Position numbers and translations under genes: made by a program
In this document: piece by piece, positions 10,648-23,522 of the stretch
Layout of the letters: each line of letters begins with the position of its first letter
How positions within the stretch are numbered: the stretch's first letter is position 1
Origin: an uncultured Gammaproteobacteria bacterium
Lineage (GTDB): Bacteria > Patescibacteriota > Microgenomatia > Levybacterales > UBA12049
Reading direction: 5' to 3'
DNA: 64,000 nt
Assembly: GCA_964515545.1 (NCBI GenBank)
Contig: CAZERI010000002.1
Span: forward strand, 57,612 to 121,611
The notes under the pieces: model-generated
Databases searched by the model: none
Seen by the model: only the letters and a program-made list of their open reading frames with translations
Told to the model about the DNA's origin: nothing

Positions 10648-10838
10648 CTATCAGTTCTTAGGTCTTCGTTCCTAGGGTTTATTGTTATATTAATTCTCTG
10701 TTCCTAATTCCTACGAGCTATGATCTATTACCTTACTTTCAGCTGGGCTTCAGAAATTTCTTATATATTCCTTACACTACTCTACGTTATCTCTTAAGCT
10801 GAAGTACTAAGCTAAGGGAATCGAAAGGAGGTGACACT

Positions 10839-11050: not shown

Positions 11051-11078
11051 AAAAATACTTCGTATACGAAGTATTTTT
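11051..11078. terminator. Bidirectional rho-independent terminator between convergent genes
   Basis: AAAAATACTTCG-TATA-CGAAGTATTTTT: a perfect 12-bp stem with an A-run on one side and a T-run on the other. Confidence 0.8.
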
Positions 11079-11442
11079 AGTTTGTGGATGTTATTCTTGC
11101 AACTGTAGAGGTGAGGATTTCAAGATCAAACGGTTTCTCTATAATTCCTTGAATTTGGATTCCTTGAGAAAGCTGACGCAGACCATGGGTTGCAGAGACA
11201 AGAATGATAGGTATTCCCCGCAGTTCTTCGTCACGCCGTATCTTTTCTACCACCTGCTTGCCAGTCATATCAGGAAGCATATAATCCAGAAGGATAAGAG
11301 ATGGGTGTTCTTTTTTAGCTGTTTGGATACTATCTTCTCCCGTAAAGGCAGTTATTGTTTTATAGTTCTCAAGACCTAAGATTGTCTCTATCGCTGAGAC
11401 GATGTCATGATCGTCGTCAACAATAAGAATTTTTTTAGCCAT
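11077..11442 (-). CDS. Single-domain response regulator (CheY-like receiver)
   Basis: ILIVDDD...LLDYMLPDMTG...K, the receiver-domain Asp pocket; 121 aa with no output domain. Confidence 0.85.
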   Translation of the reverse strand: MAKKILIVDDDHDIVSAIETILGLENYKTITAFTGEDSIQTAKKEHPSLILLDYMLPDMTGKQVVEKIRRDEELRGIPIILVSATHGLRQLSQGIQIQGIIEKPFDLEILTSTVARITSTN

Positions 11443-12551: not shown

Positions 12552-12662
12552 AGTTGTAAGAAAGCTTATTGAAATGTGGTGATAAAGGCTTAATAGAAAT
12601 GTAAGAAATAGATAATAATTTGTTCAGTTAGCTTCAAATGTTTGGAAATAAAATATAATTTT

Positions 12663-12671
12663 TGGTAAGAT
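12663..12671 (+). promoter_or_regulatory. Extended -10 (TGGTAAGAT) 6 nt upstream of the histidine kinase ATG (leaderless-type)
   Basis: Read directly from the sequence; no SD. Confidence 0.35.
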
Positions 12672-12677
12672 ACTAGG

Positions 12678-13835
12678 ATGGATAAAAAATTAGCAATTAT
12701 AAACGACGCTGCTCTTCACTTTTTGATGCCGAGTGAGTTACAGAAAGTATATGCCATTATTGTGGAGAAAGCAGTCGAGCTGGTAAATGGTTCTTTCGGT
12801 TCTATTATTCTTACTAACGATAAAGAAATGGTGAGAGTCTATACCTCCAACCCTGATCACTTTAGTAGTAAGGTTAGAAAAGGAGAAAATGCCTCAAAAG
12901 CTTATTATCAGAATAAAGTTTTGGTAGTCCCCATATCAGATTTATCTTCGTCACATCCTGAGTTAGTAGAAAAAAAAATTAAGTCAACTATCTTTATTCC
13001 TCTAAGCAATAGAAATAAAGCAGTAGGGGTTTTGGTCGTTAATAGCCAGTACGATATAAAGCTTAAATCAGGCGATCATGATCTTCTTTCACTCTTTGGA
13101 GCTATGGCAAGTCTAGCTATTAGGAAGACTCAGCTTTATACCGAGACAAAGACTGCCCTTGAGACTCGAGATCATTTTATTTCTCTTGCCTCACATGAAC
13201 TCAGAACACCGCTTACCTCAATTAACGGATATATTCAGCTTCTCCACAGTAAGATGAAGGATAAGGATACTATTGAATCCAAATGGGTACAGGAGCTTCT
13301 CTATGAAAGTAAAAGGCTCACTAATCTTATCTTTGAACTTATGGAAATAAATCGCATTAAGCAGGGGACTCTTCAATTTAACTTGAAGGAAAATAATTTA
13401 AATGAGTTCTTTGAAGAACTCAAAAAGCGTGTAATACATCTTAATGATAGAGAAATTATTTTTACCAATCTCTCAGCGAAAGATGACAGGATGTTTATCG
13501 GTGATCCGGAAAAACTGATGAATGTGTTTATTGGACTCATTACGAATGCTGAGAAATTTTCTTCTCCTAAAGATCCGATTATCGTTACCCTTCAAGCCTC
13601 TCAATCGAAGTTCTTACTCTCTGTTACTGATAAAGGAAGCGGGATGTCTAGAGAACAGCTTGCAAAAGTCTTTGAAGGATTTAATAAATTTGATAATCAG
13701 GAAGGGCAGGGATTTGGGGTAGGTCTTCTGTTAGCTAAGCACATCATCGATTTTCATCACGGAACAATTGAAATTAACTCAAGAGTAAAAAAAGGGACAA
13801 AGGTTGAGGTGAAGCTTCCCATACTCTCAAAATGA
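12678..13835 (+). CDS. Cytoplasmic GAF-domain sensor histidine kinase
   Basis: No TM segment. GAF-like N-terminal half; H-box SHELRTPLTSINGYIQLL; HATPase_c N/G boxes (ITNAEKFS, DKGSGM, GQGFGVGL). Confidence 0.85.
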   Translation: MDKKLAIINDAALHFLMPSELQKVYAIIVEKAVELVNGSFGSIILTNDKEMVRVYTSNPDHFSSKVRKGENASKAYYQNKVLVVPISDLSSSHPELVEKKIKSTIFIPLSNRNKAVGVLVVNSQYDIKLKSGDHDLLSLFGAMASLAIRKTQLYTETKTALETRDHFISLASHELRTPLTSINGYIQLLHSKMKDKDTIESKWVQELLYESKRLTNLIFELMEINRIKQGTLQFNLKENNLNEFFEELKKRVIHLNDREIIFTNLSAKDDRMFIGDPEKLMNVFIGLITNAEKFSSPKDPIIVTLQASQSKFLLSVTDKGSGMSREQLAKVFEGFNKFDNQEGQGFGVGLLLAKHIIDFHHGTIEINSRVKKGTKVEVKLPILSK

Positions 13836-14917
13836 AAGAATTTAGTAATTTACCAGGGCCCTCTATGTCTCCATTTATCGATGGAGGGATGGGTATGTTT
13901 ATGCTTCCGGAAACTGAGATAGAGATGCTTCTTCATGAAAAGTATGAATTACTTGATCATTTGAGAGTTCCGGATAATGCCTGGGGACATCTCAGTATCG
14001 GAGATTTTCTCAATGATATTACTGGTACGCTTAATACGAAAGAAAGTACAGATATAGCAATCATAGGAGAACCCGGATCAGGCAAAACATTTGCTGCTCT
14101 TCAAATAGCCAACCTTTTTGAGGAGGTAGGGATTACGCCGTATCATATTCCTTTTGTTGATGTTATCCGTGATGCAAAAGAAAGAGGACTTATCCCTCAG
14201 GAGAGTCCTTTTGGTAGTTTGAGTCCTCAGGAGTATCAGACAGTAAGTAATTTAATGTATCGAATCCATGAGCAGGTGGCAGCAGAGACGGAGGGAACTC
14301 CCTCTATTCGGATAGGAGAGTGTCCAGGTATTCCGACATTTGAGAAAGAAGATGAGGATCTGGTAGTAGTCGATAGAGGATTTTCAGCTGTGAGCAGACT
14401 GGTTCAAAATAGAGAGGGATATGTGATGGGTATGTACGGCAGTTCACGCATGAGAGAAAAAGCCAAGAATTTCAGAGGCAAGCTCCCCGGTCTTACTGAT
14501 GAAACTGCTGAGCAGACTCTTTCAGAATTTAATATAAATGTTCAGTCTGACAAGAAAAGATCTGTTGTAGAGACCTTACAGAGAAGCGGAGCCCCAATCG
14601 ATGCGGTAAAGCATTATGAAGATGTGATAAATCAGACATTTGTACTTTTAGCCAAGAGCAGGGAGGAAGAACTGGGTATTGCTGCTGAGAGTATAACCTC
14701 TGAATACCTGGCAGATCATCCTGATGTCAGAACTCGGCTGATTGGGTCTATATTTATTCCTTATCTTTTAAGAGATGAGTATAATGTTCCGGAGGATCAT
14801 TGTGTCGTAGCATATAACCGATTAATCCAAAAGAAAATGCATCGTTTTGATTCTGAAAGTGTGCATTATCATCGCATTCTTTCTCCTGAGAGAATAGATA
14901 TAACTAATTTAGGATAA
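13832..14917 (+). CDS. P-loop NTPase, RecA/KaiC-superfamily-like, translationally coupled to the histidine kinase
   Basis: ATGA overlap with the HK stop. Walker A IAIIGEPGSGKTFAALQIANLF resembles the KaiC/RadA type; candidate Walker B DLVVVDRG. The C-terminal 170 aa match nothing I recognise. Confidence 0.55.
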   Translation: MKEFSNLPGPSMSPFIDGGMGMFMLPETEIEMLLHEKYELLDHLRVPDNAWGHLSIGDFLNDITGTLNTKESTDIAIIGEPGSGKTFAALQIANLFEEVGITPYHIPFVDVIRDAKERGLIPQESPFGSLSPQEYQTVSNLMYRIHEQVAAETEGTPSIRIGECPGIPTFEKEDEDLVVVDRGFSAVSRLVQNREGYVMGMYGSSRMREKAKNFRGKLPGLTDETAEQTLSEFNINVQSDKKRSVVETLQRSGAPIDAVKHYEDVINQTFVLLAKSREEELGIAAESITSEYLADHPDVRTRLIGSIFIPYLLRDEYNVPEDHCVVAYNRLIQKKMHRFDSESVHYHRILSPERIDITNLG

Positions 14918-14987
14918 ATGTATCCTTTCTCTTTTCTTACGTAATTTATCTCTTTTTCTCATCAGCTACGTGTAATCTAGATCACAG

Positions 14988-16166
14988 ATGCGAATTGCAC
15001 AGATAGCCCCAATTATCGAATCAGTCCCTCCAGAGAAATATGGCGGAACAGAGAGAGTCATATCAGCACTCACTGAAGAGTTAGTGAGAAGAGGGCATGA
15101 AGTAACACTCTTTGCCAGTGGAGATTCTATAACAAAAGCTCGTCTCTCCTCAGTCTTTCCGACATCTCTTCGAGAGTCTGGTATTGAGAACATCTATGGC
15201 TATAATATCTGGTCGCTTCTTCATGTCGGTGTGGCGTATCAGCGTCAGGAAGAATTTGACATTATTCATGACCATAATAGCCAGAATAATCCCGTGAGTT
15301 TACCCCTTGCTAATATTTCCCAGACTCCCGTTGTCATGACACTGCATGGACCGCTTAATGGTGATTATGGTTTTGAGACTGATGGACACGGATATCGATT
15401 TTTTGAACTATATAATAAGCCACATCTAGTTACCATCTCCCGCAAGCAGCAGCAGCCTGCGCCTCATCTGAACTTTGCTGGAAATGTCTATCATGGATTA
15501 CCGATGGAGAAGTATCCTTTTTGTAAAAAGGATCAGGGTTATCTCCTTTTTGTCGGAAGAATTCATCTCTATAAAGGAGTAGAAGAAAAAGGTCTCTGTA
15601 ATGCAATCGAAATCGCCAAGAGATTGCATATGCCTCTCCTTATAGCAGCCAAATTAGATACTAGTATTAAAGAGGATGTAGCGTATTTTGATAGCGTTAT
15701 TAAGCCAAATTTGTCTGATAAGATCCGCTTCTTAGGTGAGGTCGATGAAAAAAAGAGAAATGAGCTGATGAGTAATGCATTTTGTCTTATTCACTCAATT
15801 AATTTTGAAGAGCCTTTTGGACTTACTCTTATAGAGGCGATGGGTTGTGGGTGTCCAGTAGTCGCTTTCAATAAAGGATCCATACCAGAGATTATAGATG
15901 AAGGACGCACAGGTTTTGTTGTTTCAGGGATTGAGGAGGCTGTCTCAGTGATGCCCTCTGTTAAGGAACTTTCCCGCATCACAGCCAGGGAATATGCCCT
16001 CAAGAATTTTAGCTCATCTAGAATGGCTAAAGACTATGAGGCAATCTACCAAAATATCCTTTCTCAGCATACTTCCACATTTATCACTACGTCATTTAAG
16101 AAGTCATTTCCCCGCAGTAAGCGAGTTGAGGCGCTAGCTGATGAGCGGTTAGCAGTTGTCCACTAG
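14988..16166 (+). CDS. Glycosyltransferase family 4 (GT-B, retaining)
   Basis: N-terminal MRIAQIAP...YGGTERV and C-terminal EPFGLTLIEAMGCGCPVVAF...GSIPEII...G.TGF, the GT4 signature. Confidence 0.8.
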   Translation: MRIAQIAPIIESVPPEKYGGTERVISALTEELVRRGHEVTLFASGDSITKARLSSVFPTSLRESGIENIYGYNIWSLLHVGVAYQRQEEFDIIHDHNSQNNPVSLPLANISQTPVVMTLHGPLNGDYGFETDGHGYRFFELYNKPHLVTISRKQQQPAPHLNFAGNVYHGLPMEKYPFCKKDQGYLLFVGRIHLYKGVEEKGLCNAIEIAKRLHMPLLIAAKLDTSIKEDVAYFDSVIKPNLSDKIRFLGEVDEKKRNELMSNAFCLIHSINFEEPFGLTLIEAMGCGCPVVAFNKGSIPEIIDEGRTGFVVSGIEEAVSVMPSVKELSRITAREYALKNFSSSRMAKDYEAIYQNILSQHTSTFITTSFKKSFPRSKRVEALADERLAVVH

Positions 16167-16191
16167 TATTGTATGAAATCTCTTGTTCAGC

Positions 16192-16220
16192 TTGACTTGT
16201 CGTCTTTCCTTCGCTAAATT
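16192..16220 (+). promoter_or_regulatory. Sigma70-like promoter (TTGACT-N17-TAAATT) upstream of the glycosidase gene
   Basis: Spacing and hexamers read from the sequence. Confidence 0.3.
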
Positions 16221-16253
16221 CGAGTAAGAATTTATTTCAACAATTTCTGCCTT

Positions 16254-17558
16254 ATGGACTATACATCTCTCCGTTCACGAATTTATACTGATATCTTAGG
16301 TTTGGCCACTGAAGACGGCATAAATGCATCAGGTAAAGATGAAATATATGGCTGCATTTTTGGCCGTGATAGTGCTATAACTGTTCTTAAGATTCTTAAG
16401 GTTACTTCCTCTAAGAAAGCCTCTTATTATTATGATGTAGCCCATCTTCAGGACATGTGTAGGCGGGCGCTTATCAATCTAACAGCACTTCAAGGAAGAC
16501 AGACTGTTTTTGAAAGTGGTGAACAACCAGGGAAATTTATCCATGAATATCGGAAAAATCGTTATGATCATCTGCTCCGCCTAGAAAAGCCGTGGTATGT
16601 CTATCCCGATGGAATTCTTCGTAACTACGACTCACTTGACTCAACGCCACTTGCACTTATCGCAATCTATCGATACTGGCAGCAGACCCATGATGATACA
16701 TTCCTCCTCACAGTTCTTCCTTCGGTTGAAGCTGGACTTAACTGGATTATTACCTATGGTGACTTAGATAAGGATGGACTGGTAGAGTATGAATTGCCTC
16801 AGGATAGGCCCTATGGAGGCCTGCCTGTCCAGTCGTGGACAGATTCACATCAGTCGATAAGTAGCGCTGATGGAAGTATGCCATCCTATCCAATAGCTCC
16901 TGTTGAGGTCCAGGGATATACCTGGCTTGCTCTCAAATTGTGGAGTGATTTTTATGCAACTGACCATGTAGGCGGAAATACTCAGAGCTTTTCTAAAAAA
17001 CTCATGAAATTTGCTGATAGCATGAAAGAGCAGTTTAATAAGCTTTTCCTTTTTGAAGATAATGGATATATGTTCCCCGCCCAGGCACTCGATGGAGTTA
17101 AAAACCAGTTGAGGACAGTTACCGGAAATCCTCTGTTATTATTATGGGCGACTTACCAGAAAGCTTCAGAAAAAGAAGTTATTTTAAGTCCTGACTATAT
17201 TGAACCGTTAGTAAAGAGATCTTTCTTGCCGGATCTTTTTGATCGTGATGCAGGGATTCGTACCATGAGTATGCTGTCTCAGACTTTTGATGCATCAGAA
17301 AATTCATACCATAACGGCAGTTTCTGGCCCAAATTAAATGGAATGAGTCATGAAGGACTTATCAATTGGGGCTATACCGAGGAAGCAGATCTTCTGAAAG
17401 AGGCATCTCTTAAGCCTATTGTTCATTTTGGCAGCCCTATTGAGCTTTATATGAAGAATGGAGATGGAGGATACGGAGAATTTCATTCTAATGGTCAGAC
17501 AGGCTGTCGGGTCCAGGCCTGGTCTGCAGCAGCTACACTTGATCTCCTAACTCAGTGA
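16254..17558 (+). CDS. Amylo-alpha-1,6-glucosidase / glycogen-debranching-enzyme C-domain-like (alpha/alpha)6 glycosidase
   Basis: The GCIFGRDSAITVLKIL (FGRD) motif and overall length fit the GDE_C / GH63-like six-hairpin glycosidases. Confidence 0.6.
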   Translation: MDYTSLRSRIYTDILGLATEDGINASGKDEIYGCIFGRDSAITVLKILKVTSSKKASYYYDVAHLQDMCRRALINLTALQGRQTVFESGEQPGKFIHEYRKNRYDHLLRLEKPWYVYPDGILRNYDSLDSTPLALIAIYRYWQQTHDDTFLLTVLPSVEAGLNWIITYGDLDKDGLVEYELPQDRPYGGLPVQSWTDSHQSISSADGSMPSYPIAPVEVQGYTWLALKLWSDFYATDHVGGNTQSFSKKLMKFADSMKEQFNKLFLFEDNGYMFPAQALDGVKNQLRTVTGNPLLLLWATYQKASEKEVILSPDYIEPLVKRSFLPDLFDRDAGIRTMSMLSQTFDASENSYHNGSFWPKLNGMSHEGLINWGYTEEADLLKEASLKPIVHFGSPIELYMKNGDGGYGEFHSNGQTGCRVQAWSAAATLDLLTQ

Positions 17559-18035
17559 TTCGAAGCAATTTTTATGGAAGTGAAGTTCTGCTTTAATTTT
17601 ACTTCGTGTCTCATACCAGACGTGAAATCCTTTTCGTAGGTTATCTTTAGGATCGATATCTAAGTCTTTACCACAGAGGTCACAGATAAATGCTTTGAGT
17701 AGTGGTTGGGAATGAGTATTCCAGTCTTCTAGTAATTCTTCAAATGTTTCCTTAGTTTTTTCTGAGTAATTATTGGCAAGGATAGGTGGAGTAGCTGGAG
17801 GCTTAAGAGCTATTTTAAGATTATGAGCATGAAATGCAGGTTCACAGGTGTCAGGGCATAGATGAACTGGTACTATGTATCCTCCGCTCGTGAGCCAGTG
17901 GTGCCATGATTCATTTTTATATTCTTGGCAAGCTGCACAACGAAAGCCTCGATATTCAGGGTCAGAACTGAGAGTCCAGCTTTTAACTATAGTGAGTAAG
18001 AGTTGCTGTTCATCCACAGCCTGATTATAGCACAA
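17547..18035 (-). CDS. Hypothetical Cys/His-rich (zinc-ribbon-like) protein
   Basis: CAACQEY...HLCPDTCEP...CDLCGKD...HKNC, several CxxC-like pairs; no family recognised. Confidence 0.45.
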   Translation of the reverse strand: MCYNQAVDEQQLLLTIVKSWTLSSDPEYRGFRCAACQEYKNESWHHWLTSGGYIVPVHLCPDTCEPAFHAHNLKIALKPPATPPILANNYSEKTKETFEELLEDWNTHSQPLLKAFICDLCGKDLDIDPKDNLRKGFHVWYETRSKIKAELHFHKNCFESLS

Positions 18036-18040
18036 CTACC

Positions 18041-18601
18041 TTAATGTCTAGTAGTGTGAGAAGGGATGGGGAGAGCATCTACGATATTCTGATTTTTATT
18101 AAGAATAATATTCATTAGTTGTACTGTCCGTTCTACGGCTATAGTCAGCCTCTCAAGCTCTTCAGATTTGGCATGAATCGTTATATGAAATGTTCCTTTG
18201 GGATCATGGGTCCAGTCCCAATTAGTCACCCCTTCATAACTGGCATAGTCTAGGCCATTCTCAAGCTGGATGATACAGAGATATTCTAGAAGTATGTGTT
18301 CAAAAAGATGTCCAAGTTCAGTTCTGGCTACTTCCTTAGCAAAGGGTAGATGCTCATCGTTATAACACGCAGATTTAAAAATAGTTGGGAGGTAAAGTTG
18401 TAATAGTTGATGTGTCTGGGGGAAGCAGCTCGTATTTACCTCAGGAATAAGGAGCTTCATAAGGATACATGTCTTGGTGGGACGACGATCGATAGAGAGA
18501 GTATAAAGGTCACGACTCGCGATTTCCTCTATGCTCAGCTTTTGCAGGGTTTTGAGCTTAGACATAAAAAATAAATTCATTTTTATGATAGTAAAGACCA
18601 A
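18041..18601 (-). CDS. Hypothetical protein
   Basis: 186-aa ORF that fills the gap in the same orientation as its neighbours; the start is uncertain (several N-terminal Met). Confidence 0.4.
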   Translation of the reverse strand: MVFTIIKMNLFFMSKLKTLQKLSIEEIASRDLYTLSIDRRPTKTCILMKLLIPEVNTSCFPQTHQLLQLYLPTIFKSACYNDEHLPFAKEVARTELGHLFEHILLEYLCIIQLENGLDYASYEGVTNWDWTHDPKGTFHITIHAKSEELERLTIAVERTVQLMNIILNKNQNIVDALPIPSHTTRH

Positions 18602-18722: not shown

Positions 18723-19397
18723 TTACTCTTTAATGACGTAGCCGAATCCGCGGACTGAGTGGAGGAGCTTTTTTTCATGCTCAAAGTCAATTTTCTTTCG
18801 CAGATACCCCATATAGACGTCGACAACTCGAGTCTCGATATCACTTGAATAGAGCCAGATACGATTAAGGATCATTTCGCGCGTAAGGATACGACCTTTA
18901 TTATTCATGAGGTATTGGAGAAGCTTAAATTCCTGAGGAGTGAGCTGGATTTGTTTGTCTCCTCGGGTGACTTCAAGTGTCTTGCTGTTGAGTTTAAGAT
19001 CAGCGACCTCAAGGAGTGCTTCATTACTGCCGTCTTTACGGCGAAGTCTGGCTTTAATGCGGGCTAAGAATTCATCTGCCACAAAAGGTTTAGTCATATA
19101 GTCATCAGCGCCTAAGTTGAGACCCTGGACAATATCATTAATACTGTCTTTTGCGGTAAGGATAATAACAGGCAGCTCAGGATATTTTTTGCGGACTTCA
19201 CTACAGACTGCCTCTCCGCTCATATTAGGAAGCCCAAGATCTAGTACCAGAAGATCCGGCTGAGTACGGGTGAGAGTCTCCAGTGCCTCAATGCCGTCTC
19301 CTGCAACTTTGACAGAGTAGCCGTTATCCAGGAGTAATTCCTTGAGGTATTTTTGAAGGCCTTTATCGTCTTCGACAACGAGAATGGTTTGTACCAT
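18723..19397 (-). CDS. OmpR/PhoB-family response regulator (orphan)
   Basis: Receiver domain (ILVVEDDKGL...LLVLDLGLPNMSG...K) plus a winged-helix output (LTPQEFKLLQYLM...VRGFGY). Confidence 0.9.
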   Translation of the reverse strand: MVQTILVVEDDKGLQKYLKELLLDNGYSVKVAGDGIEALETLTRTQPDLLVLDLGLPNMSGEAVCSEVRKKYPELPVIILTAKDSINDIVQGLNLGADDYMTKPFVADEFLARIKARLRRKDGSNEALLEVADLKLNSKTLEVTRGDKQIQLTPQEFKLLQYLMNNKGRILTREMILNRIWLYSSDIETRVVDVYMGYLRKKIDFEHEKKLLHSVRGFGYVIKE

Positions 19398-19652
19398 ACG
19401 GGGAGAGTATAGCAGTCTTCTTACAAAACCTCAATGTATCTTTGCCTTTCTTGCGCTTCTCTTACATTCTCATCTATTGCCTCAGAAAAAATAAGCTCTA
19501 CTGAGGACTCGATATGTATTATAGTAATTTTCTTACTTTCTACTCTAGGATAGGTTATGGTTGAGAGGTATACCTTGTCTCCATGGGATTTCTATTGGCT
19601 GAGTATCCTCACAGCTCTCTTACTTTCTTTTGATTTTCAGCTTACGTTGACC

Positions 19653-21045: not shown

Positions 21046-22098
21046 ATGAAGAGACAGAGTGTTTTATCAAAAAAAATCAGGATAGGAGTAGTAAGTGCTG
21101 GAGTTATTATTGGTATGGTGTCGTTAGCTGCCAGCCATGTATCTTTTCTCCACCTTATGTCTCCTCTCTCATCACAAAAAGAAGATGTATTGGCTGAGCT
21201 CCTGCCTCGGCTTACCCAAAAGCAGAATACCTATCATTTGAGTACTCCACATAGCCTTATCAGTCAGGCTTCTGCTGAAACGTTGGGAGATACTGCTAAA
21301 GCCTATGCAGTACTGGACTTTGACTCAGGGCAGATTATAGATAGTAAAAACGGGGAGAAGGAAGTACCTATCGCTTCTCTTACTAAGATAATGACTGCTG
21401 TAGTAGCTCTTGATATTTCCTCACCCGGTGAGAAATTTGCGGTGATGAAGAAAGCTGCAGATCAAATTCCGACAAAAATCGGCGTTCGTGTGGGAGAGCG
21501 ATTCACATTACAGGAGTTATTAGAGGCAGGACTCATGACATCTGCAAATGATGCAATTGAAGTTATTAGAGACGGGATAGATGCCAAGTATAACGATGAG
21601 GTTTTTGTAAAGGCTATGAATGCCAAAGCAGAGTTTTTAGGTCTTACGCATACTCACTTTACCAATCCTCAGGGCTTTGACTCACCAACTCATTACAGCA
21701 GTACATCAGACTTAGCTGTGCTTACTCACTATGCGCTGACTAATTACCCGCTTATCGCAGATATCGTTAAGAAAGATTATGTATTACTTCCTGCTACTAA
21801 GGAGCATAAGCAGTATGACCTTTATAACTGGAATGGGCTTTTAGATGTCTATCCTAATATAAGCGGAGTGAAAATCGGGAATACTGAGAATGCCGGAACA
21901 ACGACTATTGTAAAGTCAGAAAGGAATGGTACTAATCTTTTAGTAGTAGTCCTTGGTACGCCAGGAGTATTAGAGAGGGATCTTGCTGCAGCAGAACTGC
22001 TGGATGAGGGGTTTGAGTCGACCTTAGGACTTATACCGATTAATATTACCGAAAAAGAACTTAGAGCAAAATATGCTACCTGGAAATACTGGAATTGA
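21046..22098 (+). CDS. D-alanyl-D-alanine carboxypeptidase (peptidase S11, PBP5-like)
   Basis: Signal/TM segment; SxxK ASLTKIMT; SxN TSANDA; KTG-like KIGNT. Confidence 0.8.
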   Translation: MKRQSVLSKKIRIGVVSAGVIIGMVSLAASHVSFLHLMSPLSSQKEDVLAELLPRLTQKQNTYHLSTPHSLISQASAETLGDTAKAYAVLDFDSGQIIDSKNGEKEVPIASLTKIMTAVVALDISSPGEKFAVMKKAADQIPTKIGVRVGERFTLQELLEAGLMTSANDAIEVIRDGIDAKYNDEVFVKAMNAKAEFLGLTHTHFTNPQGFDSPTHYSSTSDLAVLTHYALTNYPLIADIVKKDYVLLPATKEHKQYDLYNWNGLLDVYPNISGVKIGNTENAGTTTIVKSERNGTNLLVVVLGTPGVLERDLAAAELLDEGFESTLGLIPINITEKELRAKYATWKYWN

Positions 22099-22237: not shown

Positions 22238-22588
22238 ATGACGATACTGCTGGCAGAGGACGACGAATCCATAGCATCTGTAGTAACTCTTATCCTTACT
22301 GAGAACGGCCATAGTGTATTACTTGCGGGTGATGAGAAATCGTTTCATCAGCATCTCTCCCAAAAACCACAGCTTATTTTGCTCGATATTTCTCTCCAAG
22401 GGGCAAGTGGAGCAACTCTTGCAAAAAAAGTAAAAAACGATCCCTCTCTGTCTCAGATTCCCCTTATTATGGTCTCTGCTAATTCTAATACTAAAGAGAT
22501 TGCTCGAAAATCAGGAGCAGATGGATTTTTGCTAAAACCTTTTGATCTGGATGAGCTGCTTGATCTAGTAGCAGAGCATACTGCTTGA
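22238..22588 (+). CDS. Single-domain response regulator (receiver only)
   Basis: ILLAEDDESI...LILLDISLQGASG...KPFDLDEL; 116 aa. Confidence 0.8.
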   Translation: MTILLAEDDESIASVVTLILTENGHSVLLAGDEKSFHQHLSQKPQLILLDISLQGASGATLAKKVKNDPSLSQIPLIMVSANSNTKEIARKSGADGFLLKPFDLDELLDLVAEHTA

Positions 22589-22809
22589 GTTTCTTCCTCT
22601 ATCCTTACTTTCCTTTAGTTGTTCTCTTATGAAACTTTTTAATAATGTGCTGAGTACTACTATGAATGCTGACGAAAAGATAATTATTATTGAGGATAAA
22701 AAAAAGAAGAGTTCCTCTCTTGAATTAAAGAAGATTCTTATTAATGCCATTCGGATGCAGGCTGTCTATTCCAAAGGTAAGATAACGATACTTGAGACTA
22801 GTGAGATGA

Positions 22810-23361: not shown

Positions 23362-23522
23362 ACCATATTATAGTTTCTCCAGAGAGTATTGTATAGCCAC
23401 AAATTGATATGGTATGAATGGTAATTATCCTTACAGCAGGTTTTATTTTTTCTGATTTAATGACACTAGGCATATTACTGTAAGAATGCTATATCAGACT
23501 ATAGCAATATGGCCTGGCAGGG

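Follow-up and report, generated by a model that had tools for sequence, protein, structure and literature searches.

In a window of 64,000 nucleotides (the whole stretch of DNA that was analysed), the gene for a soluble histidine kinase (HK) runs into the gene for a P-loop protein, which raises the question of what this protein is and what it does beside the kinase. A preliminary description of the locus had taken it for a RecA/KaiC-like ATPase standing in for a response regulator, and had called the two an unusual signalling pair. The pair comprises the following features:

12678..13835, + strand: soluble sensor histidine kinase, 385 aa (GAF, HisKA, HATPase_c)
12735-13121, + strand: GAF domain of the HK, residues 20-148 (Pfam, E=3e-9)
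13167-13367, + strand: HisKA domain of the HK, residues 164-230 (Pfam, E=5e-12)
13500-13823, + strand: HATPase_c domain of the HK, residues 275-382 (Pfam, E=1.7e-21)
13832..13835, + strand: ATGA stop/start overlap of the HK and P-loop genes (translational coupling)
13832..14917, + strand: P-loop protein of an unnamed family, 361 aa, with an archaeal adenylate-kinase-like P-loop kinase fold

A conserved pair of kinase and P-loop genes

The HK has the GAF-HisKA-HATPase architecture without a transmembrane segment that had been assigned to it, as all three domains were matched in Pfam and the Kyte-Doolittle maximum in a 19-aa window was 1.37. With the H-box HELRTP at residue 173 and intact N, G1, F and G2 boxes, it is a classical HisKA kinase, the nearest solved kinase cores being SrrB, HK853 and VicK. 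A GAF domain was found in every kinase partnered with the P-loop family, and the H, N, G1, F and G2 boxes were complete in eight of the nine full-length ones. The HK of locus L011 has lost its G1, F and G2 boxes and kept the H-box histidine, and the P-loop protein encoded there has a canonical Walker A.

The overlap of the HK stop codon (TGA) with the ATG of its neighbour, pointed out in the preliminary description, is present as the ATGA at 13832..13835(+). Among relatives, the same ATGA recurs in L002, L006, L011, L012, L014 and L015, while L001/L003 have TAATG and L007 has a 1-nt gap; the HK and the P-loop module are separate ORFs at every sampled locus, with overlaps mostly of 4 nt or 1 nt. 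Within a linkage sample of 13 family members (~10 clusters at <50% identity), an HK of the same type lay directly 5′ of the P-loop gene in 12, and this linkage across clusters puts the pairing far above chance. It persists at 20-30% partner identity, while the flanking genes differ. Two relatives (P0020 and P0047) carry an N-terminal receiver (REC) domain fused to the full family domain, which ties the partner family to phosphorelay. N-terminal extensions in P0010 and P0011 were considered as cryptic receivers and gave no Pfam match. Linkage under changing flanks and the receiver-fused variants together uphold the view of an unusual signalling pair.

Fold and family of the P-loop partner

Profile searches for KaiC, RecA and DnaB had been proposed as a check on the ATPase assignment, and when run they placed the 361-aa protein in the kinase-type P-loop class instead. 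KaiC, RecA, Rad51 and DnaB_C were absent from the Pfam/NCBIfam matches of the query, which consisted of weak generic P-loop models only, and from the Pfam matches of 35 family members. Likewise, KaiC/RecA/DnaB did not appear among the best 60 matches of the family-profile search against the PDB, nor RecA-fold proteins among the best 50-60 structural matches of the partner model (AlphaFold with a 35-sequence alignment; a 5-sequence alignment had given a pLDDT of 50 and was set aside).

The best sequence and fold matches of the partner were adenylate kinases. In the PDB search by hmmsearch, the family profile matched the archaeal adenylate kinase AdkA (6pjw, E=3.4e-8; 1ki9, E=1.2e-6) over spans of 84-89 residues, and hhalign of the partner family against AdkA gave 95.5% and E=1.4e-8; the comparison structures were PDB 6pjw, 1ki9, 1kht, 6ln3 and 1nks. 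This likeness reaches beyond the P-loop, as the NMP-binding segment of AdkA is still recognisable, and the partner has a P-loop NMP-kinase fold. The residues and segments on which this comparison turns are:

14066..14089, + strand: Walker A, GEPGSGKT, residues 79-86
14312..14338, + strand: IGECPGIPT motif, core strand ending in E163 (E/D in 33/35; strand 158-164 in the model)
14372..14476, + strand: conserved arginine cluster comprising DRG (R182, 31/35), R208 (25/35) and R215 (32/35, +2 K)
14444..14791, + strand: mostly helical insert of ~115 residues (~205-320), between strands 197-203 and 324-329

All conservation counts refer to the 35 family members. The Walker A originally reported is present, at residues 79-86, with K85 kept in 35/35, G84 in 31/35 and S/T86 in 32/35; some lineages have non-canonical versions (SWKT, SFKT, GKE) and retain the coupling to the HK. 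The proposed Walker B, DLVVVDRG, fared less well, since its strand is gapped in up to 10/35 members and an acidic residue stands at position 181 in 16/35 only. A hydrophobic-Q does follow Walker A in the window sequence, but it does so in only 15/35 members and is thus no family signature. The acid that follows the core strand is E163 (E/D in 33/35), inside the invariant IGECPGIPT. This residue probably serves as the Walker-B-equivalent acid, matching the strand end (hhhhD) of the adenylate-kinase Walker B in a region that the AdkA alignments leave unresolved. R182, R208 and R215 we take to be LID-type arginines of P-loop kinases. The helical insert, which contains SGAP, HPDxRT and PYLL motifs and is followed by N329, sits at the adenylate-kinase LID position, and the model also has an N-terminal helical extension.

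A single-domain KaiC/RecA-like ATPase, partnering the HK in the manner of SasA/CikA and replacing the response regulator, had drawn on the Walker A followed by hydrophobic-Q in the window sequence alone and on the HK linkage itself. Against it stand the lack of KaiC/RecA/DnaB matches in any library searched and of a RecA fold among the best 50-60 structures, the poor conservation of the proposed Walker B and hydrophobic-Q, and a cognate OmpR regulator in the module (see below). As far as the structure model goes, this reading is refuted at the level of the fold, and we give it hardly any credence.

The partner is best explained as a member of an unnamed, rare family derived from an archaeal-type adenylate kinase, to which an N-terminal helical extension and the LID-position insert have been added. 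Neither Pfam nor NCBIfam nor PADLOC names the family, and 42 representatives in 1.84 billion mark it as extremely rare. A protein search with the 35-sequence profile was dominated by P-loop words and yielded no new members, and two loci from a metagenome scan with a narrower alignment (L009 and L010) were discarded as generic P-loop matches. A defence-system reading was likewise dropped, PADLOC giving noise only (mad8, 14.8 bits).

Given that the top sequence and fold matches are adenylate kinases, the partner might be a housekeeping adenylate/NMP-kinase paralogue that merely shares the HK transcript. However, no curated adenylate kinase model was reached by the 361-aa partner (NCBIfam or Pfam, at E<=1 / 0.1), the protein is almost twice the size of an adenylate kinase and has a large insert, and the family is extremely rare and fast-evolving. 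The 12/13 linkage to one HK family, the translational coupling and the receiver fusions speak against a bystander as well, which makes this very improbable.

The regulator and a shared upstream repeat

As the preliminary description had stated, no receiver gene abuts the pair, the nearest receivers being encoded at 11077..11442(-) and 18723..19397(-). The second of these and the genes before it are as follows:

14988-16166, + strand: GT4 glycosyltransferase (Pfam)
16254-17558, + strand: GDE_C/MGH1-like glycoside hydrolase (Pfam)
17603-17626: terminator-like site
18723..19397, - strand: OmpR-family response regulator (REC + winged helix), 224 aa, likely cognate

The regulator lies 3.8 kb downstream of the pair and is 71-76% identical to those that adjoin HK-P-loop pairs in L007, L011 and L014; its best NCBIfam similarities (MtrA, CopR, PhoB, RpaB and YycF) were all under the cut-off. 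The GT4 and GDE_C/MGH1-like genes accompany the pair in L001-L003 only and are absent in L007, L011, L014 and the P0030 contig, so 14988..17558 is a lineage-specific insert between pair and regulator, outside the conserved module. Judging by this orthology, the gene at 18723..19397(-) likely encodes the cognate regulator of the HK. Two single-domain receivers (11077..11442(-) and 22238..22588) were considered as partners and set aside since, unlike the OmpR regulator, they are not kept beside the pair in distant loci.

Upstream of both the HK operon and the regulator gene a common repeat was found:

12601..12617, + strand: direct repeat GTAAGAA-N4-ATAATA, a candidate OmpR-type operator located 61 nt before the HK start
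12661..12671, + strand: TTTGGTAAGAT, extended -10-like element (TGnTAAGAT), with its end 6 nt ahead of the HK ATG
14924..14940, - strand: repeat copy (2 mismatches) in the 70 nt that separate the P-loop gene from GT4
19449..19465, - strand: repeat motif in the orientation of the regulator gene, 52 nt before it, with 2 mismatches

The repeat has the consensus GTAAGAA-N4-RTAAGA with an 11-bp period. At 57-77 nt before the HK operon it recurs in L001, L002, L007, L011, L015 and L016; in L012 it precedes a gene that is coupled to the HK. It also stands 56-65 nt upstream of the regulator gene in L001, L007 and L011, and the position between the P-loop gene and GT4 is filled in L001 and L002 as well. 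Near-matches in the window numbered 16 versus 6.4+-2.3 in shuffles, for a motif defined from the same loci as were counted, and 6/16 of them were intergenic (P~4e-4). The OmpR regulator presumably binds this repeat. The extended -10-like element, kept upstream of the HK start in the window, L001, L002, L003 and L007, is a putative promoter element by its consensus. An Rfam search of the window returned tRNA-Glu only.

That the regulator adjoins the pair in L007, L011 and L014 and shares an upstream repeat with the HK operon argues that the P-loop partner is no substitute for a response regulator. The earlier notion of an ATPase in its place thus does not hold, as the window also encodes the OmpR regulator whose orthologues adjoin the pair in distant relatives.

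A possible three-component module and its known counterparts

With fold class, gene linkage, regulator orthology, conserved motif and receiver fusion established, we tentatively propose, at a probability of roughly 0.4, that the P-loop protein is a dedicated partner of the soluble GAF-HK and forms with the highly conserved OmpR regulator a three-component module in Levyibacteriota-like (CPR) bacteria (an assignment based on the taxonomic labels of two relatives). HK and partner would be made in a fixed ratio from one coupled message and form a complex, in which the partner, going by its conserved residues, may bind nucleotide via K85/T86, E163, R182/R208/R215/R300 and N329. By analogy with ATP binding in the KdpD N-terminal domain and with RapZ-QseE, the nucleotide-dependent conformation of the partner could set how far the HK acts as kinase or as phosphatase on the OmpR regulator. 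The regulator in turn would bind GTAAGAA-N4-RTAAGA before its own gene, before the HK operon and before envelope/stress genes nearby. Binding, catalysis and the direction of information flow in this scheme are predictions. The partner evolves fastest of the three components, at 20-30% identity against 39-44% (HK) and 70-78% (regulator), and has a non-canonical Walker A in some HK-coupled lineages, which argues for a modulator rather than a housekeeping enzyme. On the other hand, regulated outputs are usually built with a fused receiver at the N-terminus, and most members keep all the catalytic-type residues (K, S/T, E/D, several R, N), which also fits a true enzyme; both weaken the modulator reading.

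These same two observations favour the possible, if less probable, alternative of an output role. Here the partner would be an active phosphotransferase, either an atypical protein Ser/Thr kinase or a kinase of small molecules or nucleotides, under the control of the HK or, in P0020/P0047, of the fused receiver, and would provide a second, non-transcriptional branch. Such a protein would correspond to the KdpD 'tandem serine-histidine kinase' split in two; in KdpD, the Ser kinase is the Walker A/B domain, and it acts on KdpB (PMC11018627). The ATGA-coupled partner gene does occupy the usual position of a phospho-acceptor gene. However, the neighbourhood holds no conserved substrate candidate, several HK-linked members have a degenerate Walker A, divergence is very fast for an enzyme, and the NMP-phosphate-binding Arg after strand 2 (R113 equivalent) is kept in only 9/35 members.

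GAF domains are frequent binders of nucleotides and small molecules. Since every partner kinase has one and the partner still resembles the NMP-binding segment of AdkA, the partner might make or consume a phosphorylated small molecule or nucleotide that the HK senses through its GAF domain. We regard this as improbable, given that it leaves the receiver fusions unexplained and that members with a degenerate Walker A are still linked to GAF-HKs. Similarly improbable is an energy-charge-gated phosphorelay, in which the partner would exchange phosphoryl groups directly with the HK phospho-histidine or nucleotide pocket, loading, draining or bypassing the HK catalytic domain as the adenylate pool dictates. 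The L011 pair, in which H-box histidine and canonical partner Walker A outlast the G1/F/G2 boxes, offers an anecdotal hint of it. In a milder version, the partner would be an HK- or REC-gated atypical kinase, as in a split KdpD-like tandem kinase.

The genomes of CPR/Patescibacteria are very small and encode few regulators, which makes it likely that a conserved three-part module controls something central; peptidoglycan and stress genes are part of its candidate regulon. With a dedicated partner of this kind, the few P-loop modules that work with HKs (KdpD domain, RapZ, CvnD) would be joined by an adenylate-kinase-derived fold. Direct experimental handles are offered by the candidate operator and by the relatives with a fused receiver. 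The locus also illustrates that a Walker A beside a kinase should not be labelled KaiC-like without a fold test.

Compared with its closest structural relative, the partner (361 aa) exceeds AdkA (~190 aa) by the N-terminal helical region and the helical insert; the NMP-phosphate Arg equivalent is unconserved in the partner family, and its gene stands behind an HK in all but one of the sampled members. KaiC is likewise a P-loop protein that works with a histidine kinase (SasA/CikA), but it is a double RecA-fold hexameric autokinase, whereas the partner has a kinase-class P-loop fold, no KaiC match and no clock context.

The N-terminal domain of RapZ has a kinase-like fold. As a P-loop protein that binds QseE/QseF, RapZ responds to a metabolite by stimulating autophosphorylation (PMC7073468). 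It is encoded apart from qseEF and has an RNA-binding C-terminal domain, whereas the partner gene is HK-coupled; the partner had no RapZ-family match, and RapZ was missing among its best structural matches.

KdpD resembles the pair in that a P-loop domain is physically coupled to a histidine kinase, and ATP binding by its N-terminal Walker A/B domain, an atypical Ser kinase, has been implicated in control of the HK phosphatase (PMC11018627). In KdpD, however, this domain is fused into one membrane protein, whereas the partner is a separate, translationally coupled soluble protein; the KdpD domain (PF02702) matched neither the query at E<=0.1 nor the 35 members at E<=0.01 (Pfam), and the KdpFABC context is absent around the pair.

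Finally, LiaFSR, QseEGF and the Cvn/AGPS conservons likewise combine an HK with a dedicated co-encoded accessory, and such accessories occur with kinases lacking extracytoplasmic sensors, the conservons carrying CvnF and the Ras-like P-loop GTPase CvnD (PMC13343842). Roadblock, DUF742 and Ras-like GTPase genes were absent beside the pair at every locus inspected, and the partner fold is kinase-like, not Ras-like. While the accessories of these three-component systems are membrane proteins, roadblock proteins or a Ras-like GTPase, the system described here joins an adenylate-kinase-like kinase fold to a canonical OmpR regulator.

The histidine kinase gene and its P-loop neighbour

The soluble kinase gene, the gene for its P-loop partner and the element preceding them are located in the window as follows:

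12661-12671, extended -10-like element TGnTAAGAT, TTTGGTAAGAT, ending 6 nt before the kinase ATG
12678-13835 (+), histidine kinase ORF, 385 aa
13832-14917 (+), P-loop partner ORF, 361 aa

Both ORFs and the ATGA overlap between them were present as in the preliminary description, and the kinase indeed contains GAF (residues 20-148), HisKA (164-230) and HATPase_c (275-382) domains, with intact H, N, G1, F and G2 boxes, a core resembling those of SrrB, HK853 and VicK, and, as had been stated, no hydrophobic stretch able to span the membrane. The Walker A motif of the partner, GEPGSGKT, was likewise found, at residues 79-86. Within the pair interval, the opposite strand carried no ORF of at least 60 aa, the sole additional ORF was a 66-aa out-of-frame stretch inside the kinase gene, and an Rfam search yielded no family match. 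The -10-like element is kept in the window and in related loci L001-L003 and L007, and its position so close to the kinase ATG would imply a leaderless or very-short-leader mRNA.

Genomic context was recovered for 13 members of the partner family. In 12 of these (the window, P0002, P0004, P0005, P0006, P0008, P0009, P0011, P0013, P0022, P0030 and P0042, forming ~10 clusters below 50% identity) the gene directly upstream, in the same orientation, encodes a GAF-HisKA-HATPase kinase of ~370-396 aa, which upholds the earlier proposal of an unusual, hard-wired pair. The junctions comprise ATGA (seven loci), TAATG (two), a 1-nt gap, a 16-nt gap and a 29-nt overlap that may be a start mis-call. Because the flanks vary among the linked loci, the linkage is more than shared synteny. 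In locus L012, an extra 285-aa gene without a Pfam match (175-1032) is itself ATGA-coupled upstream of the kinase, and may represent a fourth component.

All linked loci have a GC content of 33-40%, and the lone unlinked member (P0014 in L013, 309 aa) is on a contig of 68% GC. It belongs to a shorter, high-GC subgroup (P0012, P0014 and P0018) in which the partner's helical insert is partly missing; its single recovered context (L013, 228-1157) has no adjoining histidine kinase and has a ThDP-enzyme gene next downstream. The subgroup may have kept an ancestral, unlinked state or may differ in function. Judging from the sampled loci, the partner family seems restricted to CPR-like genomes of low GC. 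Two relatives carry a taxonomic name: a Candidatus Levyibacteriota MAG, whose contig shares ~78% DNA identity with the window, and a MAG labelled "uncultured Gammaproteobacteria" (L001/L005; GCA_964424775.1, CAYRJZ010000007.1). The contig of the latter (38% GC, ~65-78% DNA identity to the window) is syntenic with both the window and the Levyibacteriota MAG, and its label is probably wrong.

Fold and conservation of the partner protein

The partner family is very rare, as a word-indexed search of 5.8 billion clusters recovered 5 proteins, and HMMER, run exhaustively over 1.84 billion representatives, produced 42 matches at E<=1e-3, ~35 of them full-length relatives of 300-440 aa. The partner had been taken for a KaiC-like ATPase of the RecA fold, and this interpretation is wrong. 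Pfam and NCBIfam listed no KaiC, RecA, Rad51 or DnaB model for it, all their matches being to generic P-loop models below threshold (AAA_17, AAA_22, nSTAND3, DnaC/IstB-like), and PADLOC returned only noise. The proposed Walker B, DLVVVDRG, reads ELTAISRG in relatives at 48% identity, and its strand is often gapped across the 35 aligned members, with an acidic residue at position 181 in just 16; the "hydrophobic-Q" following Walker A occurs in 15/35. Moreover, neither structural match list contained a RecA-fold protein among its best 50-60 matches, and a KaiC-like partner is exceedingly improbable.

Conserved residues of the partner in the 35-sequence family alignment
G79, G84: 31/35 each
K85: 35/35
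S/T86: 32/35
E/D163: 33/35
R182: 31/35
R208: 25/35
R215: 32/35, plus 2 K
R300: 29/35
N329: 32/35

The combination of one acid behind a core strand and several arginines is characteristic of LID-bearing P-loop kinases. When compared with the PDB, the family profile matched archaeal adenylate kinase (6pjw, E=3.4e-8; 1ki9, 1.2e-6; 1kht, 1.2e-5) over 84-89 residues, far past the P-loop. Profile-profile comparison with an AdkA fragment gave 95.5% probability over query residues 72-150, which comprise the P-loop and strand 2 as well as the helical segment that in AdkA forms the NMP-binding region. An AlphaFold model built from the 35-sequence alignment (pLDDT 89.4, pTM 0.88) retrieved archaeal adenylate kinases at the top of the Foldseek list, then UMP-CMP, APS, PFK-2 and dTMP kinases and PSTK, with some AAA+ proteins further down. 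These sequence, profile and fold matches therefore place the partner in the P-loop kinase class, as a derivative of adenylate kinase. The structural matches take in 120-208 of its 361 residues; the rest consists of a helical N-terminal region and of a ~115-residue helical segment that, in the model, sits between strands 197-203 and 324-329, a position that would be equivalent to the adenylate kinase LID.

The partner nevertheless falls outside the AdkA family proper, since no curated model was reached, it is twice the size of AdkA, and an equivalent of the NMP-phosphate arginine is retained in just 9/35 members. That it is a bystander NMP kinase, encoded in 12 of 13 contexts directly behind a histidine kinase, seems very improbable.

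Evidence other than gene order connecting the family with two-component phosphotransfer comes from two relatives. In P0020 (500 aa), a receiver domain at the N-terminus (Pfam E=1.6e-21) precedes a full-length family domain at residues 123-487 (hhalign 99.9%, E=2e-32), and P0047 (501 aa, 53% identical to P0020) shares this architecture. Such receiver-N-terminal fusions, along with a mostly intact set of catalytic residues, favour the main rival to the model developed below, namely that the partner is a regulated enzyme output in a split KdpD-like tandem kinase; we regard this as possible, if rather unlikely.

The response regulator, its candidate operator and neighbouring genes

The region following the pair contains these features:

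14988-17558, GT4 glycosyltransferase and GDE_C/MGH1-like (alpha/alpha)6 glycoside hydrolase genes, between the kinase pair and the regulator
17547-18035 (-), gene for a Cys/His-rich 162-aa protein, downstream of the regulator
17603-17626, terminator-like hairpin, right after the hydrolase
18041-18601 (-), gene for a 186-aa protein, downstream of the regulator
18723-19397 (-), OmpR-type regulator
10759-10775 (-), 12601-12617 (+), 14924-14940 (-), 19449-19465 (-), 22592-22608 (-) and 23480-23496 (+), intergenic repeat copies

The idea that the P-loop protein stands in place of a response regulator did not hold, as an OmpR-type regulator belongs to the module and adjoins the pair in L007, L011 and L014. 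In L007 and L014 a 223-aa regulator directly follows the P-loop gene in convergent orientation, and in L011 it is divergent, just upstream of the kinase. With the window regulator these three share 74, 71 and 76% identity, versus <=35% with the window's two single-domain receivers. Among the same genomes, identity is 70-78% for the regulator, 39-44% for the kinase and 20-30% for the partner. In the Levyibacteriota lineage, pair and regulator are separated by the GT4 and hydrolase genes, an insert seen in Levyibacteriota-like genomes only, and also by small genes on the minus strand, one or two in number, the window having two; the distant loci contain none of them. Because the gaps around the GT4 and hydrolase genes are 70 and 87 nt and a hairpin follows the hydrolase, these genes may be co-transcribed with the pair. 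The gene for the 162-aa protein runs with its 3' end 12 nt into the hydrolase gene, and the 186-aa protein weakly matches the cyanophycin synthetase N-terminal domain (25 bits, below cut-off).

The GAF kinase orthologue of L011 (3072-4184) has lost the G1, F and G2 ATP-binding boxes yet retains its H-box, which probably makes it a pseudokinase or a phosphatase. The ATGA coupling persists in this locus, where the partner's Walker A is canonical, and a second, PAS-PAS type kinase adjoins the regulator. This loss bears on more radical readings of the module.

The sequence GTAAGAA-N4-RTAAGA, a direct repeat with a period of 11 bp, lies 57-77 nt upstream of the kinase start in the window (12601-12617), L001, L002, L007, L011, L015 and L016, and upstream of the extra coupled gene in L012; all exact matches in the fetched loci are at this pre-kinase (operon) position. 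Another copy precedes the regulator gene by 52-65 nt, in gene orientation (window 19449-19465, L001, L007 and L011), and further copies stand upstream of GT4 (window 14924-14940, L001 and L002), of the KGG stress gene and, in L001, of GH18, PBP1 and YflT genes. The window has 16 near-matches versus 6.4+-2.3 in shuffles, for a motif defined from these same loci. Six of the 16 are intergenic, all within 10.7-23.5 kb, although intergenic DNA makes up just 6.6% of the window. An AT-rich motif such as this one is favoured by the AT-rich composition of spacers. OmpR/PhoB-family regulators usually bind head-to-tail repeats with 11-bp spacing, and we infer that the repeat is a candidate operator of the OmpR-type regulator, its positions suggesting an envelope/stress regulon. 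A Peptidase_S11 (D-Ala-D-Ala carboxypeptidase) gene (window 21046-22098; equivalents in L001-L003, L007 and L014) turns up repeatedly no more than a few kb from the module, in lineages with little synteny otherwise, which hints at a cell-wall connection.

A working model for the module

Our preferred model, to which we assign a probability of roughly 0.4, is that the adenylate-kinase-like partner would be made stoichiometrically with the histidine kinase and bind it, and that the partner would also bind nucleotide, its nucleotide state tuning the kinase/phosphatase balance toward the OmpR-type regulator. The latter would in turn autoregulate both operons and control nearby envelope and stress genes. 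This model is favoured by the strict kinase linkage, by the fast evolution of the partner, as is typical of input modules, and by kinase coupling that persists in members whose Walker A is non-canonical (SWKT in P0013 and GKE in P0042, both with confirmed context). P0025 (SFKT) and P0046 (GKE), known from the alignment, deviate in a similar way. The partner might instead make a ligand for the GAF domain, which we consider improbable. What largely stands of the preliminary description is thus its observation of the genes and of a hard-wired pair, and not its KaiC/RecA assignment or the missing regulator. Histidine kinases with P-loop modules coupled to them, and "three-component" systems with an accessory protein, are already known kinds; new here is an unnamed partner family with a different fold origin, that of adenylate kinase.
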